Virus genome (UHGV): UHGV-0112358
Length of the DNA: 41,688 nucleotides
Source: a virus
Reading direction: 5' to 3' (one strand)
Part shown: one piece after another, positions 2,027-8,137 of the stretch
How the letters are laid out: each line of letters starts with the position of its first letter
Position numbering within the stretch: the first letter of the stretch is position 1
Translations under genes and position numbers: made by a program
The notes under the pieces: generated by a model
Told to the model about the DNA's origin: nothing
Database searches by the model: none
What the model saw: only the letters and a program-made list of their open reading frames with translations

Positions 2027-2320
2027 TCAGTCATTACTGATAGCGCCATAGCGTGAGCGGTAATTACGCAGGCGCGGGTCAATTTCAGGGAAGTGGGTAT
2101 ATGTGGCTTTGCGGAATGGTCGGATTGATGTCTGGTAAATTCGCTCGCGTTCTTCTTTCTCTGCAAGCCATATACAATGGCGAAATTCCTTTTCCTCTTT
2201 CGTTTCCTGCGGTAGCGACATTATCCGGTCGTAGTTTTTTCCGAATTTATCCAGCACCTCCAATACGGAATTGCCGGAACAGCGGCGCGGGTCATCCGCA
2301 CCATACAGAGGCGCTGGCAT
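2027..2320 (-). CDS. hypothetical phage protein
   Basis: 97-aa ORF directly downstream of exonuclease gene in same operon. Confidence 0.45.
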
Positions 2321-2336: not shown

Positions 2337-2884
2337 TTATTTAGCTAACTTTTTCCAGATCGCTGAAACGTATTTGGCTTGGTGAATGGCATCATCAAGC
2401 GCGTTGTGGCGAGTTCCTTTGAATGGCATATCTCGCTTAGGGTCGAATCCTATTGCCTTCCCAAGTTCGACGATTGTTCTTACGTCGCGGTCATTCCACC
2501 ACTGCCACGGAACTGGCTGCCCTGTCAGCGAATAACTGTTGCGGAGAATAACGCAGTCAAATGATGCTCCATTCCCCCAAACCTGAACGAATTTGTGGTT
2601 AGCGTTCTTTATGATGAATTCAGATAACCATGAAAGAGCCGTTGAGAGCTCTTGAGTGTTGCTGGTTAGCGATTTTCTGGCTTCTTCACTCTGTTCCATC
2701 CACCATAAAATCGTTGAAGCGTCAGGACGCGCCCGATATCGCATTGATGACTCAAGCGAGATATTTACCGAGAACTCTTCTCCTGTTTCTCCGGTATTCG
2801 GGTCAAAGAATACCGCCCAATAGAAATAACTGGCGCGTATGGCCCGTTGCCCATTGTTTCAAGGTCAACCATCAAGTGATTCAT
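2337..2884 (-). pseudogene. DnaQ-like (DEDDh) 3'-5' exonuclease, disrupted by 1-nt frameshift near 2813-2821
   Basis: ATG 2884 gives MNHLMVDLETMGNGPYAPVISIG (Exo I D-x-E) then stops after 38 codons; other frame continues AVFFDPNTGE...HNALDDA (Exo III); one missing G in a G-run restores a ~182-aa protein. Confidence 0.6.
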
Positions 2885-2892
2885 GTAAGTCC

Positions 2893-3408
2893 TTAAATTG
2901 CGTGAATAGCGTGACGAGGGAAGGGGAGAGTTACTGGTGCAAAGGGGATGTCGTCGTCAAAATCCATAGGTGGTTCGCTGTGATTTCCCTGCTGCTGAGG
3001 TTGCTGTCTTTGTTGCTGACCATTATTTCGCTGAGGTGAAGACTGTTCATTGCCTCCTTGCTTGCCACCAAGCATTTGCATGGTTCCACCAACGCCCACG
3101 ATGACTTCGGTAGTGAACCGATCCTGTCCGCTTTGATCCTGCCATTTTCTTGTCCGCAATTTGCCTTCAAGATAAACCTCAGAGCCTTTTCGCAGATATT
3201 CGCTGGCAATTTCTGCCAGTTTCCCGCTCATTACCACGCGGTGCCACTCCGTCTGCTCCTTTTGCTCTCCAGTTTGCTTATCACGCCATTGTTCTGACGT
3301 AGCAACGGTAAGGTTTGCAAATGCCGTTCCTGATGGTGAATATCTGATTTCTGGATCATGCCCAAGGCGACCAATAATGATCACCTTATTTACGCCTCTG
3401 CTTGCCAT
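2893..3408 (-). CDS. ssb: single-stranded DNA-binding protein
   Basis: N-terminal OB-fold sequence [20 protein letters not shown]..., Gly/Gln-rich linker, acidic tail DFDDDIPF. Confidence 0.9.
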
Positions 3409-4116
3409 TTATGCCGCCTGTTTTAGCTCGTTAACTCTGATGTTCATTACCTGAACGCATTTAGCCTGCGCCTCCTCGTTTCCAGCCATTAATTGCCAGT
3501 CACGCTGATAACGCTCGATGAGTTTTTTCTTGTCAGTTTCTGTTGACGCATAATCGCTGAAGTCTTTCAGGATTTGTTCGCAGTCAACCGATGGAGATTT
3601 CTGGTTGGTATTTTCTGGTGATGGTTTGTTATCTGATGCTGGGATTGCCCATCCCGGCAGTGATGGAGGGAGCCAGTAAAATCCTGTTCCATCCTTCAGT
3701 TTTGCCCTGTGCCACCCCTGCTTTTTATCGAGAGATGTTTGTGCGAAACCTTCCTCAAGGTTATACAGATACCGACCGATTCCCCACTGAACGGCAGCGC
3801 GCTTCATTGCACCGGAACGACCACCTTTGACGGCTTCTACCTGCGTGTTTTCAGCAGCATCCCATTTGGTTACCCATTCGGAATCAATCTTTATTGATAT
3901 GCCGCATTCAACGCCGCCGTTGTTGGGAATATCGCGGTATTCATTGCGCCATCCTGCTTTGCCGCAAACATCGTCCAGGCGTTTCATGATTGCCCGGTTC
4001 GTGACATAAGCCAGCACCATAGCCCACACTTTGCCATCGCGTGTTTTACCGCTTTGCTGTATTCGCCATTCGATATCTTCAGGGCTGAATGGCTCATCGA
4101 ATTTATTCAAATCCAT
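3409..4116 (-). CDS. Rad52/Sak-type single-strand annealing protein
   Basis: 235 aa with motif AAVQWGIGRYLY; SD GAGGTG; position upstream of ssb in recombination module. Confidence 0.7.
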   Translation of the reverse strand: MDLNKFDEPFSPEDIEWRIQQSGKTRDGKVWAMVLAYVTNRAIMKRLDDVCGKAGWRNEYRDIPNNGGVECGISIKIDSEWVTKWDAAENTQVEAVKGGRSGAMKRAAVQWGIGRYLYNLEEGFAQTSLDKKQGWHRAKLKDGTGFYWLPPSLPGWAIPASDNKPSPENTNQKSPSVDCEQILKDFSDYASTETDKKKLIERYQRDWQLMAGNEEAQAKCVQVMNIRVNELKQAA

Positions 4117-4215: not shown

Positions 4216-4374
4216 TTATGGCGATACCAGAGAGCTTTCTGCGTGTACATGCGTCTCTGTAACTTGCTCTCCTTCACCGTGGTTGCAAGTGACATGAATA
4301 TCTCCTTCGTTACCGATTAAATCTTTCATCTGACGAATGAATTCTTCGTCTGACCAGTTATCTGTAAAACTCAT
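4216..4374 (-). CDS. small hypothetical protein (52 aa)
   Basis: ATG overlaps Kil-like stop (ATGA); ORF below track cutoff. Confidence 0.3.
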   Translation of the reverse strand: MSFTDNWSDEEFIRQMKDLIGNEGDIHVTCNHGEGEQVTETHVHAESSLVSP

Positions 4375-4523
4375 TTCCTGCGATACCACGGAAGGTTGAT
4401 AGCTGATTTCATCGCTTTATTTGCTTCAAGCCACATTTTTGAATCACCAATAAAGCTGGCTATTACTGCTTTGTTTTGTGCTGCACGAAGCATCTGGTGA
4501 TTGATGGCTATTTCATTGCGCAT
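4371..4523 (-). CDS. kil: Kil-like host-killing peptide (50 aa)
   Basis: MRNEIAINHQMLRAAQNKAVIASFIGDSKMW... resembles recalled lambda Kil (IATFIGDEKM); directly downstream of cIII as in lambda. Confidence 0.45.
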   Translation of the reverse strand: MRNEIAINHQMLRAAQNKAVIASFIGDSKMWLEANKAMKSAINLPWYRRK

Positions 4524-4639
4524 AATAAGACCTCAACTCTTTTCCATCCGTCACGTAATTTACGGGTGATTCGTTCAAGTAAAGATTCATTTAGTTGGAA
4601 GGCACCCATGCGAGCGCCTCCCGCGATTGCGTAAATCAT
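4508..4639 (-). CDS. cIII: cIII-like protease inhibitor (43 aa)
   Basis: MIYAIAGGARMGAFQLNESLLERITRKLRDGWKR matches recalled lambda CIII core; below track cutoff. Confidence 0.75.
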   Translation of the reverse strand: MIYAIAGGARMGAFQLNESLLERITRKLRDGWKRVEVLLCAMK

Positions 4640-4662
4640 GGGTGGTTCCTTATGTTGGTTTA

Positions 4663-5631
4663 TTAGTAGGTTATTTTTGTTGCGAATACTTCGCCTTTTA
4701 CGATGGCTGTTATGATATTTTTAGCAACATCTTCTGATGCGCCAACCTTGATAATGTCAGCAAGTATTTTGTTATTTACTTCTTTCCGGTGAGCTTTATC
4801 CTTTGCTCTACGCTCTTCTTCGTCCTTGATTCTTTTTTCTTCTGCTATTCTGGCTTGCTCTTTTGCTTCAGCCTCGCGCCGGATTCGTTCAGCCTCCTCC
4901 TGTGCTTTTCGGCGTTCTGCTTCAATTGCCGCCTGCTTTTCTCTTTCAGCTCGTTCTGCTGCCTCTTTTGCTTCGCGCTGTGCTCGTTGCTCGGCTTCAA
5001 TGCGTTCACGCTCTGCACGTTCCGCTGCGGCCTTAGCTTCTGCTTCTCGCCTTGCTGCTGCTTCAATTTCGGCTTTTGCCTTTGCTTCGGCTTCTGCTCT
5101 GGCTTTCTCTTCAGCTTCTCTTTTTAAGCGTTCTTCATGCTCTCGCTTTTCCTGCTCCGCTTTGAGTCTTGCCTCTTCTCTTTGGCGGTCAAATTCGCGA
5201 TCCATCAAAATCGCTATTTCATGGTCAGACTCAATTTGCTTTGCGAGAGCTTCAGCTGCTGCCTTAGCTTCTTCTTCGGCTTTAATCCGTGCCTGTTCCT
5301 CCTCATAATCAGTAAGAGGCTGGCGCGCCTTGGCTTTCAGTTCATCAAGGCGATCGCGCACTGTCTTGCGGTTAGCATCAATTAGCTTTGGAATTTCCTT
5401 CAGTTCAGCAACAAGGTCTTTGCCAAGACCATCGAGATATGTTTTCGTCTGCGCAACTTTATACGCCAGAGAAGCGATCTCCTTTCTGCCCTTTGCCGTT
5501 GTGATATCAGGCACAAAGGACATAACTTCACGTTCAACCTTTTGGAGAATTTCTTCAATCTGGTCGGCAGACTGAAATACAGTCATCGCATTTGCTTTTT
5601 CAATAACAACTAAATCTGTTACTTCACTCAT
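4663..5631 (-). CDS. coiled-coil protein with E/A/K/R-rich repeat core, unknown function
   Basis: ATG at 5631 with SD GGAGG; ~170-aa low-complexity charged central region between globular ends; track ORF extends to 5727. Confidence 0.6.
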   Translation of the reverse strand: MSEVTDLVVIEKANAMTVFQSADQIEEILQKVEREVMSFVPDITTAKGRKEIASLAYKVAQTKTYLDGLGKDLVAELKEIPKLIDANRKTVRDRLDELKAKARQPLTDYEEEQARIKAEEEAKAAAEALAKQIESDHEIAILMDREFDRQREEARLKAEQEKREHEERLKREAEEKARAEAEAKAKAEIEAAARREAEAKAAAERAERERIEAEQRAQREAKEAAERAEREKQAAIEAERRKAQEEAERIRREAEAKEQARIAEEKRIKDEEERRAKDKAHRKEVNNKILADIIKVGASEDVAKNIITAIVKGEVFATKITY

Positions 5632-5643
5632 ATATCCTCCATC

Positions 5644-5670
5644 AAAAAAAATCGCCCTCACACTGGAGGG
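5644..5670 (-). terminator. rho-independent terminator inside pL operon (tL-like)
   Basis: Minus strand CCCTC-cagtgt-GAGGG then T8, immediately before the RBS of the coiled-coil gene. Confidence 0.5.
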
Positions 5671-5922
5671 AAAAGAAGATTTCCAATAATCAGAACAAGT
5701 CGGCTCCTGTTTAGTTACGAGCGACATTGCTCACATAGCAGACTCGTAAATCTGCTATAGGCGCTTATTCGCATCGCATGACAACATCAAATTTTTCGAG
5801 ATTACTTTGTCGCAACAATCCTTTTTCTACGCGGTCAGCTTTTCTATAATTATCAAATTAGAAATGTTTAATTACTTCTTTCGTTTCTCGCTCTATAACT
5901 TCAACAATGTATTTCTTATTCA

Positions 5923-6201
5923 TCATTCTTCCCCCAGAGCCTTGCTGATGGCTGCCTTGGCTCGTTTGTATTCGGTTAACTCTCTGCACCCTTCGTCATG
6001 CTCGTAAATGAAGACAAGCTCTTGCAGTGCTTCAAGCAAATCAGGAGCTGCTGCTATCAGTAGCGCATCCTCCCTTTCATTTCTTGTTGCTGCTTCAATG
6101 TATGTGTCACCAATCGTCACACCATGGAACGTAGTCATCATCTCGTTGACGTTTCTAACCGTGTACTTCCATTTACCAGGCGTACCCTTAAACTCTTTCA
6201 T
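5923..6201 (-). CDS. hypothetical protein (92 aa)
   Basis: ATG at 6201 preceded by GAGGTGG; track ORF starts at GTG 6207. Confidence 0.45.
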   Translation of the reverse strand: MKEFKGTPGKWKYTVRNVNEMMTTFHGVTIGDTYIEAATRNEREDALLIAAAPDLLEALQELVFIYEHDEGCRELTEYKRAKAAISKALGEE

Positions 6202-6221
6202 ATCCACCTCTGTTGTTTATG

Positions 6222-6245
6222 CCAAAAATAAAGGCCGACTATGCG
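6222..6245 (-). terminator. rho-independent terminator (tL1-like)
   Basis: Minus strand AGGCCG-catagt-CGGCCT followed by TTTATTTTT. Confidence 0.45.
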
Positions 6246-6253
6246 GCCTGAAA

Positions 6254-6565
6254 TTACTTAACCAATGATGCCGCATATTCAATTAGGAATAACTTAGGTG
6301 CAAGCCAAATCTTCAACCATTCGAAATTGAAGGCAATAATTAAAACACCCATAATTGAGCCAAATATAGGAACAAATACAGTGCATATATCGTAATAAAC
6401 CGAAGATATAAAATGTTCATCATTTGGACGTCCATCGAAAGACGTCCATCTCTCGCCATTATTTCTTGCCGTTCTTGCAAAACTAGGAAGTTTAATTGCT
6501 GCAATTAAAAGCAACAATCCAGCCACTTGGAAAAGTGCGCTATGGACAAAACTCCATATTAGCAA
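6254..6565 (-). CDS. putative small membrane protein, no ATG/GTG start (TTG at 6565)
   Basis: Open frame 6254..6679 directly after N; hydrophobic segments; only in-frame start is TTG without clear SD. Confidence 0.3.
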   Translation of the reverse strand: MLIWSFVHSALFQVAGLLLLIAAIKLPSFARTARNNGERWTSFDGRPNDEHFISSVYYDICTVFVPIFGSIMGVLIIAFNFEWLKIWLAPKLFLIEYAASLVK

Positions 6566-6684
6566 CTGATGAACAACATCAGGAATCTGTGCCTGGCTAA
6601 ATGAAACAGCCGCGTCTATTCCATTGCTGGCTTTTTGCAGTAGTTCTACGAGAATCTTGTTTGCTTGTTCTTCTACATCTCACC

Positions 6685-7020
6685 TCAAATAAGTGGTTTG
6701 CTGCCTAATTTCATTTTTTGGCGACCAACACAAGTCACCCCCATTTCACTGCGTGGCTTGCGGTAGTAAATACGGTTCTGTTTACGCTCGACTTCTTCTG
6801 CCTTCTTGCAGCGAAGGCTTCCGAGTGATGCTGCTTTTTCAGAAAGGCTTAAACGCTTTCTTGGGGCTTCCTGAACAGGTTCCTCACTGTCTGTGCCGAA
6901 GATCGAATCGATGATGTTGCATATAGCATCACGCTCGATAGCCAGCTTTCTGCGCCGCTCATGACGGCGAGTTTTGGCATTTCCTGCAAATGTTGATTTC
7001 CCGTACACGATTACCGTCAT
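6685..7020 (-). CDS. N: N-like transcription antiterminator
   Basis: Arg-rich motif GNAKTRRHERRRKLAIERD (P22 gp24-like) and C-terminus ...GVTCVGRQKMKLGSKPLI (lambda N-like); ATG 7020 with SD GAGGA. Confidence 0.8.
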   Translation of the reverse strand: MTVIVYGKSTFAGNAKTRRHERRRKLAIERDAICNIIDSIFGTDSEEPVQEAPRKRLSLSEKAASLGSLRCKKAEEVERKQNRIYYRKPRSEMGVTCVGRQKMKLGSKPLI

Positions 7021-7139
7021 GATGTTTTCCTCATGTGAAATGGCTTTGGTGGTGATGCGCCAGATGCTGATCTTCTGGTTGCTGTCGTTGCAGCTGCAAT
7101 TCACATCACCGCCAAACCCATCTCGTTTGGTATCTGTTT

Positions 7140-7173
7140 GCGCTTTGTCAGCGCCCCATCGAAGTTAAAGAGC
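7140..7173 (-). promoter_or_regulatory. nutL (boxA GCTCTTTAA, boxB GCGCTGACAAAGCGC)
   Basis: Minus-strand boxA-like then P22-type boxB hairpin between pL and N. Confidence 0.55.
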
Positions 7174-7212
7174 CTGCCAATCTGTTCCGTTTGGCGTCCT
7201 GCTGATGGCTAA

Positions 7213-7243
7213 ATAGTACGATGTGTACTTTATTGAGTCAATA
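7213..7243 (-). promoter_or_regulatory. pL promoter with OL operator dyad
   Basis: Minus strand -35 TTGACT (7241..7236), 17-nt spacer, -10 TACTAT (7218..7213); dyad AGTACGATGTGTACT (7215-7229) in spacer. Confidence 0.4.
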
Positions 7244-7304
7244 CAAAATGTTCTAAATGCGGTTAGTTTTTTATAACACTTTGTATTTTATTGATTTATA
7301 TTTT

Positions 7305-7334
7305 GGAAAAAGAAAACCCGACGCTAAGGTCGGG
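7305..7334 (-). terminator. rho-independent terminator downstream of cI
   Basis: Minus strand CCCGAC-cttagc-GTCGGG followed by TTTTCTTTTT. Confidence 0.5.
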
Positions 7335-7366
7335 TTATTGTTGTGTGTTTTAGAGTGGTGAGGCTG

Positions 7367-8026
7367 TTAACTAAATGTCTCTTCAGGCCACTGGCTGGCG
7401 ATAACTTTCCCTACTACGGAACAGCTATCATTGCATGGGATCATTGGATATTGCGGGTTTAGTGGTTGTAGGAACACCTGACCGCTATCCCTGATCAGTT
7501 TCTTGAAGGTAAACTCGTCACCACCAAGTCTGGCTATGCAGAAATCACCTGGCTCAACAGCCTGCTCAGGGTCAACGAGAATTAACATCCCGTCAGGAAA
7601 GCTTGGCTTGGATCCTGTTGGTGCGGTCATGGAATTACCTTCAACTTCAAGCCAAAACGCACAATCACTGGCTTTTTTGGTTGTGCTGACCCATCTCTCC
7701 GCATCGCCTTTGGTAAAGGTTCTAAGCTCAGGCGAGAACATCCCGGCCTGAACATGAGAAAAAACAGGGTACTCATATTGTTTTTTAACGGGGGCAGATG
7801 AGTATTCGCCAACAGGTGAAAATGTACCGTCGTGGTTGAATGAGACGTTATCAATACCAAGGTATTTAAACACCACACCAATCTCGTCAAGAGATGGATG
7901 ACGAGATCCGCGCAACCAGTGACCAATTCCACCCTGCGTCATACCAAGCTCTTCAGCTAACTTCTCTTGAGTTATGCCGAGCTCTTTCATTCTGGATCTA
8001 GCCAGTTCATACCATTTCATTTTCAT
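7367..8026 (-). CDS. cI: CI-type prophage repressor (HTH N-terminus, lambda-like S24 C-terminal domain)
   Basis: C-terminal half near-identical to recalled lambda CI ([15 protein letters not shown]...GNSM...ASQWPEETF); N-terminal HTH differs; start MKMKW at 8026, track ORF extends to 8101. Confidence 0.9.
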
Positions 8027-8137
8027 ACCCTTATTATTACGCTCTGTACTAAAACCATCCATGCACAAGATGTATTTTTTGTTTGCATTCCAAAAGTACA
8101 TATCGTATTATTGTTTCATGGTTACTATGGAGGGCAT
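8027..8137. promoter_or_regulatory. OR region: pR promoter and candidate operators
   Basis: pR -35 TTGCAT (8083-8088), 17-nt spacer, -10 TATTAT (8106-8111); operator-like dyads ATTACGCTCTGTACT (8036-8050) and AGTACATATCGTATT (8095-8109). Confidence 0.45.

Follow-up and report, generated by a model that had tools for sequence, protein, structure and literature searches.

Sf6 gp33-type proteins, a widespread phage family with a predicted charged rod and a possible role beside recombination genes

Gene 33 of Shigella phage Sf6 is a conserved hypothetical gene that entered GenBank with the Sf6 genome and whose record says only 'similar to phage D3 gene Orf53', with reference to Pseudomonas phage D3. 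Here we analyse a gene of the same type in the virus genome UHGV-0112358, a stretch of 41,688 nucleotides that is called the window throughout. The 322-residue product is 99.5% identical over its full length to the Sf6 gene 33 protein (AAQ12223.1; megablast and tblastn, phage genomes) and matches PHROG 1376, a family listed as function unknown, from end to end (E 1.1e-109, residues 1-322 against profile positions 1-362 of 362). The same gene is carried by CUS-3, HK633, HK544, mEp043, mEp213, mEp234, IME10, N7 and Stx1a-converting phages, and it is not a new object. The preliminary description of this locus, made from the letters alone, had found the protein assignable to no family; there is indeed no curated functional family for it, but it is catalogued as PHROG 1376 and as Sf6 gp33. 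We tentatively propose, with a confidence that stays somewhat short of even, that the gp33-type protein is a non-enzymatic accessory or tether of the phage recombination module, whose activity, partners and oligomeric state are all putative.

Sf6 itself offers the closest comparison. Its gene 33 has the same neighbours, with tL2A upstream and with cIII, kil, a Rad52/Erf-like gene and SSB downstream, and no difference of substance separates its product from the 322-residue protein. As no function is assigned to the family, belonging to it brings no mechanism: a homologous phage protein is known, its function is not. Lambda Gam, a compact DNA-mimicking dimer, is comparable in its operon place next to the genes of annealing proteins and exonucleases, a slot that is also held by Mu Gam-like, DUF2483 and Sipho_Gp157 proteins. 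The gp33-type protein has no similarity to Gam in sequence or fold and no Pfam match to it (PF06064); it is more than twice as large, its rod is neutral, and the phage of the window has Abc2 against RecBCD.

Recombination genes beside gp33-family members

Annotated genomes of seven phages from seven bacterial genera were compared, and each places the homologue within the recombination operon or next to it. The gene orders are given below, with X for the gp33 homologue and orf for an open reading frame.

Pseudomonas phage JBD44: X, Erf, YqaJ exonuclease, with X directly upstream of Erf
Sinorhizobium phage phiLM21: X, Erf, YqaJ, NinB
Acinetobacter phage TCUAN1: X, Bet
Shewanella phage 1/41: X, exoVIII, Bet
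Serratia phage Eta: X, orf, exoVIII, orf, Bet
Iodobacter phage phiPLPE: RecE, Bet, X, RdgC
Vibrio phage Seahorse: AAA_24 (Sak4-like) ATPase, orf, X

A larger sample came from IMG/VR, from which 258 loci were fetched. Its diversity was obtained through sub-family alignments headed by distant members, as other retrieval gave almost only copies from E. coli. Genes were called in these loci, the targets were dereplicated at 75% identity of the N-terminal domain into 48 groups, and recombination neighbours were detected with iterated hidden Markov models seeded from Pfam-verified proteins. An annealing protein, an exonuclease or an SSB is encoded within three genes of the homologue in 30 of the 48 dereplicated loci, and within six genes in 35. 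Among the flanking proteins that were scanned with Pfam (98 same-strand proteins of at least 100 residues, from 36 loci with full flanks), YqaJ was counted 10 times, ERF 8 times, SSB and RecT 5 times each, and DUF3799, AAA_24 and PDDEXK_1 3 times each. Close copies of the E. coli type have a Rad52/Erf-superfamily gene downstream in 73 of 78 cases and a Sak4-like gene in 4 of 78. The gene accompanies the recombination module in general and not a single recombinase family, be it Erf, RecT, Rad52-like or Sak4-like.

This synteny is the sole evidence bearing on function, and it is the reason why we favour a recombination role; the operon of the window itself, which runs on to a Rad52-like protein, SSB and Abc2, is consistent with it. 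The gp33-type protein would form a rod, made up of an N-terminal bundle, a charged Ala-rich helix of some 180-215 residues and a C-terminal module, and its two conserved ends might hold partners a fixed distance apart, in the manner of a spacer or tether. Possible partners are recombination intermediates or DNA ends, the set of annealing protein, SSB and exonuclease, or a conserved host factor. Alternatively, the protein might act at the step taken by lambda Gam and protect or handle DNA ends.

Several considerations weigh against such a role. The chance expectation for a recombination gene within three genes is about 13%, given a genome of about 60 genes and a module of two or three, and this figure is an estimate and not a measured control. 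Synteny indicates membership of a module and not an activity, as genes of replication and anti-defence cluster in the same places. In the window, cIII, kil and two small genes separate the gp33-type gene from that of the annealing protein; moreover, the gene travels as a unit with PreS, cIII and kil, and its local linkage could be mosaic history. A function against RecBCD would be redundant because the phage already has Abc2. The modelled fold, being generic, gives no clue to function, and the N-terminal domain (pI 6.3) carries no net positive charge, so that DNA binding is not indicated despite the conserved Lys and Arg residues. Lastly, our literature searches found no functional study or experimental datum for any member of the family.

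The gp33 homologue often holds the position that lambda gives to gam, and a homologue of lambda Gam was found (phmmer) in 2 of 256 loci, as separate genes and never as the gp33-type protein. The frequent occupation of this place directly upstream of the annealing-protein gene and the near absence of Gam from these loci would both suit an antagonist of host nucleases or defence, which binds and neutralises a host factor that attacks or senses recombination intermediates (RecBCD, SbcCD, an SMC-like or a recombinase-sensing system). The strong conservation seen in the two end modules would be in keeping with a host target that is itself conserved. The lambdoid stretch from N to cIII contains ral, or counter-defence genes in other phages, and several defence systems are reported to target phage recombinases (PMC11846896). 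We nevertheless consider antagonism unlikely; it would make the gp33-type protein a functional analogue of lambda Gam instead of an annealing helper. No PADLOC or anti-defence model matched (the best PADLOC match, to the coiled-coil part of LmuB at E 0.035, is compositional), and the rod is near neutral (-8 over 183 residues) and so not a DNA mimic. Abc2 is already present in the window phage and in 23 related loci, and the family occurs in phages of many bacterial orders, a wider range than that of most counter-defence proteins.

A further comparison is offered by phages of Firmicutes, in which the gene upstream of erf or sak4 encodes a Mu-Gam-like, DUF2483, DUF1351 or gp157 protein, 'implying analogous function' (PMC8093625). 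DUF1351 (PF07083) is uncharacterised, helical, about 270-350 residues long and adjoins recT, erf or sak4. The gp33 family could be its remote homologue in Gram-negative phages, which is a claim of classification and compatible with a recombination role. Genomic position (PMC8093625), helical character and length are shared, and hhalign aligned the same short motif, GK.L.AE.K...K.(I/L)D..R..V+, in both of its runs. These used a verified DUF1351 protein of Enterococcus phage LG62 and a 17-sequence alignment of its relatives. Profile against profile, the comparison gave a probability of 0.5% and an E of 0.12, with little power, as the DUF1351 alignment is shallow (17 sequences, Neff 2.7). Neither the 322-residue protein nor any of 117 family members (at E<=1) matched PF07083, while the profile recovered the positive control at E 2e-18. 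Unlike the gp33 family, the DUF1351 example has neither a charged rod nor a C-terminal I.Y module. The resemblance is positional, and we regard common descent as quite improbable.

The gene and the predicted architecture of its product

The gene, its ribosome-binding sequence and the three parts of its product are located as follows.

4663-5631, minus strand: Sf6 gp33-type gene (PHROG 1376), ATG at 5629-5631 and stop codon at 4663-4665, from direct sequence reading with profile and BLAST matches
5636-5640, minus strand: Shine-Dalgarno sequence GGAGG, 4 nt ahead of the ATG, read from the sequence
5311-5631, minus strand: N-terminal conserved domain, residues 1 to about 107, from an alignment of 117 members and the AlphaFold2 model
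4762-5310, minus strand: predicted central charged Ala-rich helix, residues 108-290, from composition, periodicity and model
4666-4761, minus strand: C-terminal conserved module, residues 291-322, from the family alignment

Open reading frame, start codon and spacing bear out the 322-codon gene with a strong Shine-Dalgarno sequence that had been described before. A program-made list of open reading frames gives a longer form of 354 residues that starts at 5727. We take the start at 5629-5631 to be the true one because GGAGG stands 4 nt ahead of it, because the homologues all begin with MSEV (as in cluster P0264, 322 residues, 471 member sequences) and because the extension would span the upstream terminator and small RNA, a conserved non-coding block. 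Two antisense open reading frames on the plus strand, 4789-5127 (112 residues) and 4826-5308 (160 residues), overlie the region that encodes the charged helix and might be mistaken for genes. Their compositions are rich in Phe, Ser, Cys and Leu or in Ala, Ser and Arg, and they are artefacts of the GAA/GCN-rich, repeat-like coding sequence. Searches for tandem and direct repeats within the gene found weak low complexity of the GCTTCT type only, without a true repeat array.

The three-part architecture of the PHROG 1376 family, which comprises an N-terminal domain, a charged helix that lacks Pro and Gly and a C-terminal module with I.Y at its end, is present in the 322-residue protein. The alignment of 117 representatives also served as input for AlphaFold2, whose model has a mean predicted local distance difference test score of 87. 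Helices are modelled at residues 12-20/22-38, at 46-74, as a single continuous stretch at 81-295 and at 300-311, followed by an extended tail to Y322. As the first three pack into a three-helix bundle, the N-terminal domain is, in the model, a generic fold of this kind that leads into a rod. Helix 81-295, if straight, would be about 32 nm long by computation.

Both ends of the protein are conserved. The core of the N-terminal domain, at about residues 36-112, has the consensus FVPDxSTxKGRKxIASxAxKVAxSKTYLDxxGKxLVxExKxxPKxIDAxRKxxRDxLDxLxxEVRKPLTxWExE. Within the 117-sequence alignment, R49, G70 and R88 are invariant, and D42, T45, G48, K63, K71, K78, D85, R103, P105, L106 and E110 nearly so. 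The domain is about 50% identical among phages of Escherichia, Pseudomonas, Vibrio and Sinorhizobium. For an early accessory gene this is an unusually high degree of identity, and it suggests a conserved target. The C-terminal consensus of about 40 residues reads HRxxINxxAxxxLxxxGxxExxAKxxxxAIAxGxIxxxxIxY, with the last Tyr nearly always kept; it takes in H281 and R282 at the end of the rod, and as a motif it becomes HR..(I/V)N..A...L...G..E..AK....AI..G.I....I.Y-COOH. N- and C-terminal modules stand within one open reading frame in 244 of the 256 IMG/VR loci.

Positional conservation is almost nil in the central stretch. Across 46 dereplicated members the linker between the end modules has a median length of 177 residues, with 44 of them in the range 116-223, and its median composition is 64% E/A/K/R with less than 1% Pro and Gly. 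Because the linker is charged and poor in Pro and Gly throughout the family, we take the rod to be a conserved feature of variable length and not incidental low complexity. In the window protein, E/A/K/R make up 84% of residues 151-290, while residues 1-110 and 291-322 are of ordinary composition, which agrees with the E/A/K/R-rich core between distinct end regions that had been described from the letters.

The naming of this core as a coiled coil fared less well: the model agrees with a long charged helix, but heptad periodicity was not found, and the term over-reads an Ala-rich charged helix. The central helix (residues 108-290) has a net charge of about -8 over 183 residues, which near-neutrality speaks against DNA mimicry, and contains neither Pro nor Gly. 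Its hydrophobic residues show no periodicity at 3.5 residues (power 0.1 for ILVMF and 0.8 for AILVMF), and there are 10 large hydrophobic residues only in 151-290. Alanine, at 25% of the content, is periodic at 3.67 residues (11/3) with a power of 7.4, and opposite-charge i/i+4 pairs number 61 over the 183 residues (28 from E to K/R, 33 from K/R to E). With its richness in E, K and R, its dense i/i+4 pairs and its lack of a hydrophobic seam, the stretch has the sequence properties of an ER/K-type single alpha-helix, with the caveat of 25% Ala spaced at 3.67 residues. It looks nearer to such a helix, or possibly to a non-canonical coil with an Ala seam, than to a heptad coiled coil.

From general knowledge, ER/K single alpha-helix spacers, Hop2-Mnd1 and XRCC4/XLF may be likened to the gp33 rod as long charged helices that have no hydrophobic seam and link small end domains. 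The gp33 family has no homology to any of them. Compared with classical ER/K helices the gp33 rod has more alanine (25%), whose 11/3 periodicity could support a non-canonical coiled coil.

Scans with Pfam, NCBIfam and PADLOC up to E=10, for which the query was the whole protein, its first 150 residues or its last 55, returned compositional and coiled-coil noise only. No recurring family emerged when 117 diverse members were scanned with Pfam at E<=1, and in a profile search of the PDB the matches were confined to low-complexity helices. No hydrophobic segment, transmembrane segment or signal peptide was found in the protein (maximum 19-residue Kyte-Doolittle mean 1.07), and its N-terminus, MSEVTDLVVIEK, is acidic. 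By these sequence measures the protein is cytoplasmic and has neither enzymatic nor membrane features.

The family is large and frequently misnamed. With the N-terminal 150 residues as query, a full HMMER search of 1.84 billion representative proteins yielded 5,050 clusters at 50% identity (E<=1e-3), or 3,618 at E<=1e-10, and a profile search of a 90%-identity library gave more than 6,841 clusters; members are usually 300-360 residues long. The gene itself was found in 530 of 5,426 complete E. coli genomes (at least 95% nucleotide identity), where its usual label is 'cell envelope biogenesis protein TolA'. Thousands of database entries bear this name or that of 'colicin import membrane protein', and single phage records speak of a 'fibrinogen binding protein', 'tail-fiber protein' or 'antitoxin'; we ascribe all of these names to the low-complexity helix. 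Many entries are truncated in the repeat-like region, leaving fragments of 118-262 residues. Entries that looked like domain fusions and carried unusual Pfam labels (P0070, P0075, P0100, P0114) proved to be truncated N-terminal domains with unrelated tails and are most likely frameshifts or assembly chimeras.

The database names, together with the composition that the protein shares with the long Ala/Lys/Glu-rich helix of TolA domain II, would suggest a TolA-like envelope protein or a superinfection-exclusion factor. Composition is the whole of the likeness. The TIGR02794 model tolA_full gives 8.4 bits (E 1.1), far below its cut-off of 59.45, there is no N-terminal transmembrane anchor (maximum hydropathy 1.07) or signal peptide, and TolA domain III is lacking, the C-terminal 55 residues having no Pfam match even at E<=10. 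Expression that depends on N antitermination would in addition leave no protein in the lysogen. A TolA identity (TIGR02794/COG3064) is refuted at the level of sequence, and we attach next to no credence to a function of this kind.

The pL operon and the ea10 slot

The leftward operon runs from the repressor through N, two unknown genes, a terminator, the gp33-type gene, cIII, kil, two small genes, the Rad52-type gene, SSB and an exonuclease to Abc2. Upstream of the gp33-type gene lies a block that is shared with lambda.

5644-5732, minus strand: homologue of the lambda LPR1/PreS small RNA (sRNA) ending in the tL2a terminator, 89 nt with one mismatch to the lambda ral-ea10 intergenic block
5655-5670, minus strand: terminator hairpin with a 5-bp stem; its U8 (T8 in DNA) is at 5644-5651

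In lambda, LPR1/PreS is an Hfq-dependent sRNA of about 88 nt, whose 3' end is tL2a and which raises the translation of host dnaN (bioRxiv 10.1101/2024.10.31.621285). The hairpin in the window is weak taken alone, with 5 bp and a folding z-score of 0.26 against shuffles; we accept the terminator as real because it is nearly identical to lambda tL2a, and not on its own folding energy. The Sf6 record labels the same element both as 'tL2A' and as boundary sequence bsq4. The preliminary description had set the gene between an internal terminator and cIII, and both neighbours are in place, the terminator as a tL2a copy whose hairpin alone would have been poor support. This 'internal terminator' is probably where a conserved phage sRNA ends. 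A scan of 4300-7400 with Rfam, which has no family for the PreS-like block, gave no match. In a minimum free energy fold over 5626-5690 (minus strand), AUCUUCU upstream of the hairpin pairs with the Shine-Dalgarno region GGAGGAU of the gp33-type gene; shuffled sequences fold just as well (z 0.26), and the pairing is probably not meaningful.

The 5' end of the PreS-like block is also a mosaic boundary. Similarity to most related phages (Sf6, CUS-3, mEp and Stx1a phages) stops exactly at 5732/5733, in agreement with bsq4 of Sf6, and the genes upstream of 5733, at 5923-6207 and 6254-6565 (PHROGs 1273 and 3054, function unknown), belong to another module.

Between the PreS/tL2a block and cIII, the gp33-type gene occupies the exact slot of lambda ea10 as a non-homologous alternative. 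The 89 nt upstream are the same save one base, up to the Shine-Dalgarno sequence, and cIII follows in both. Homology to Ea10 itself was rejected (BLASTP E 1.4; 122 against 322 residues), and the two proteins are unrelated. Lambda ea10 is a non-essential gene of unknown function and not a known exclusion slot.

The start of the gene lies 24 nt downstream of the tL2a-type terminator, within the N-dependent pL transcript, and no promoter-like site was seen between the two. As the gene has no promoter of its own and a tL2a-type terminator ahead of it, its expression should need N-mediated read-through. N would let RNA polymerase pass the PreS/tL2a terminator, and the gp33-type protein should then be made from the pL transcript as a delayed-early product and be silent in the lysogen. 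Silence in the lysogen argues against a role in exclusion. The earlier suggestion that the gene sits in a slot for host takeover or exclusion finds no support here, in view of this expected silence and missing promoter, of the distant homologues, which stand beside recombination genes and not beside genes of immunity or exclusion, and of the correspondence to ea10; an exclusion role is unlikely.

The remaining genes of the operon that bear on this comparison are listed here.

7367-8101, minus strand: S24-peptidase CI-type repressor (profile match)
6685-7104, minus strand: N
4508-4639, minus strand: cIII (PF02061, E 4e-15), the next gene downstream of the gp33-type gene
4371-4523, minus strand: kil (PF06301, E 5e-20)
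3409-4116, minus strand: Rad52-type single-strand annealing protein of the same pL operon (PF04098, E 5e-26)
2893-3408, minus strand: SSB (PF00436, E 2e-38)
2337-2744, minus strand: Rv2179c-like 3'-5' exonuclease, 135 residues (profile positions 47-177 of 177 only)
2027-2320, minus strand: Abc2 anti-RecBCD protein (PF11043, E 7e-62)

The two small genes after kil resemble those of HK97 gp42 and gp42.1. In hundreds of enterobacterial phages the gp33-type gene forms a conserved mosaic block with cIII and kil, and this tight linkage might point to a cytoskeletal, nucleoid or division-related protein of host takeover that acts with these two, and long rod proteins are common in the machinery of division and segregation. 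Homologues outside the lambdoid phages, which adjoin recombination genes and have no cIII or kil as neighbours, speak against it, as does an expression screen in UTI89 that attributed the filamentation caused by the equivalent prophage region to kil. We therefore hold a takeover function of this sort to be very unlikely.

Three of the neighbouring reading frames show irregularities. The program-made frame of the repressor has 244 residues and opens with about 26 that fall outside the match to the repressor profile, which starts at residue 21; the true start is probably an internal Met. Host partners of SSB normally read an acidic tip at its C-terminus. In the SSB of the window the canonical tip, DFDDDIPF, is present and is followed by 15 more residues, so that it is not C-terminal; the extra residues could be due to a lost stop codon or be a real variant. 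The exonuclease frame lies between SSB and Abc2, a position held in Sf6 by gene 26, and appears to be truncated at its N-terminus or to have a mis-called start.

Implications for phage recombination systems

Conservation and position among relatives, which the preliminary description had named as a check, were followed on two scales: Sf6-type phages share the same block, and distant phages have recombination genes as neighbours. We speculate that the gp33 family is an unrecognised and widespread fourth component of annealing recombination systems, beside annealing protein, exonuclease and SSB, although we think this broader claim rather unlikely and trust it less than the accessory role proposed for the gp33-type protein. 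As such a component, a rod of about 30 nm might tether or space DNA ends or recombination proteins, or shield them from host nucleases, and it would serve Erf, RecT, Rad52-like and Sak4 systems alike.

Altogether, the names 'TolA' and 'colicin import' on thousands of database entries are wrong, and the family is among the larger phage families that have no Pfam model or function, with more than 5,000 clusters at 50% identity. The sequence itself is ordinary, as about one in ten complete E. coli genomes has a gp33-type gene. In phages of seven or more bacterial genera the gene is consistently placed next to annealing-protein and exonuclease genes. These come from four recombinase families unrelated to one another, and the placement makes a role as recombination accessory or in the handling of DNA ends a specific and cheaply testable hypothesis. 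If it is true, such a role would matter for phage mosaicism and for the design of recombineering tools, and co-expression of a gp33-type protein could alter the efficiency or the host range of recombineering.

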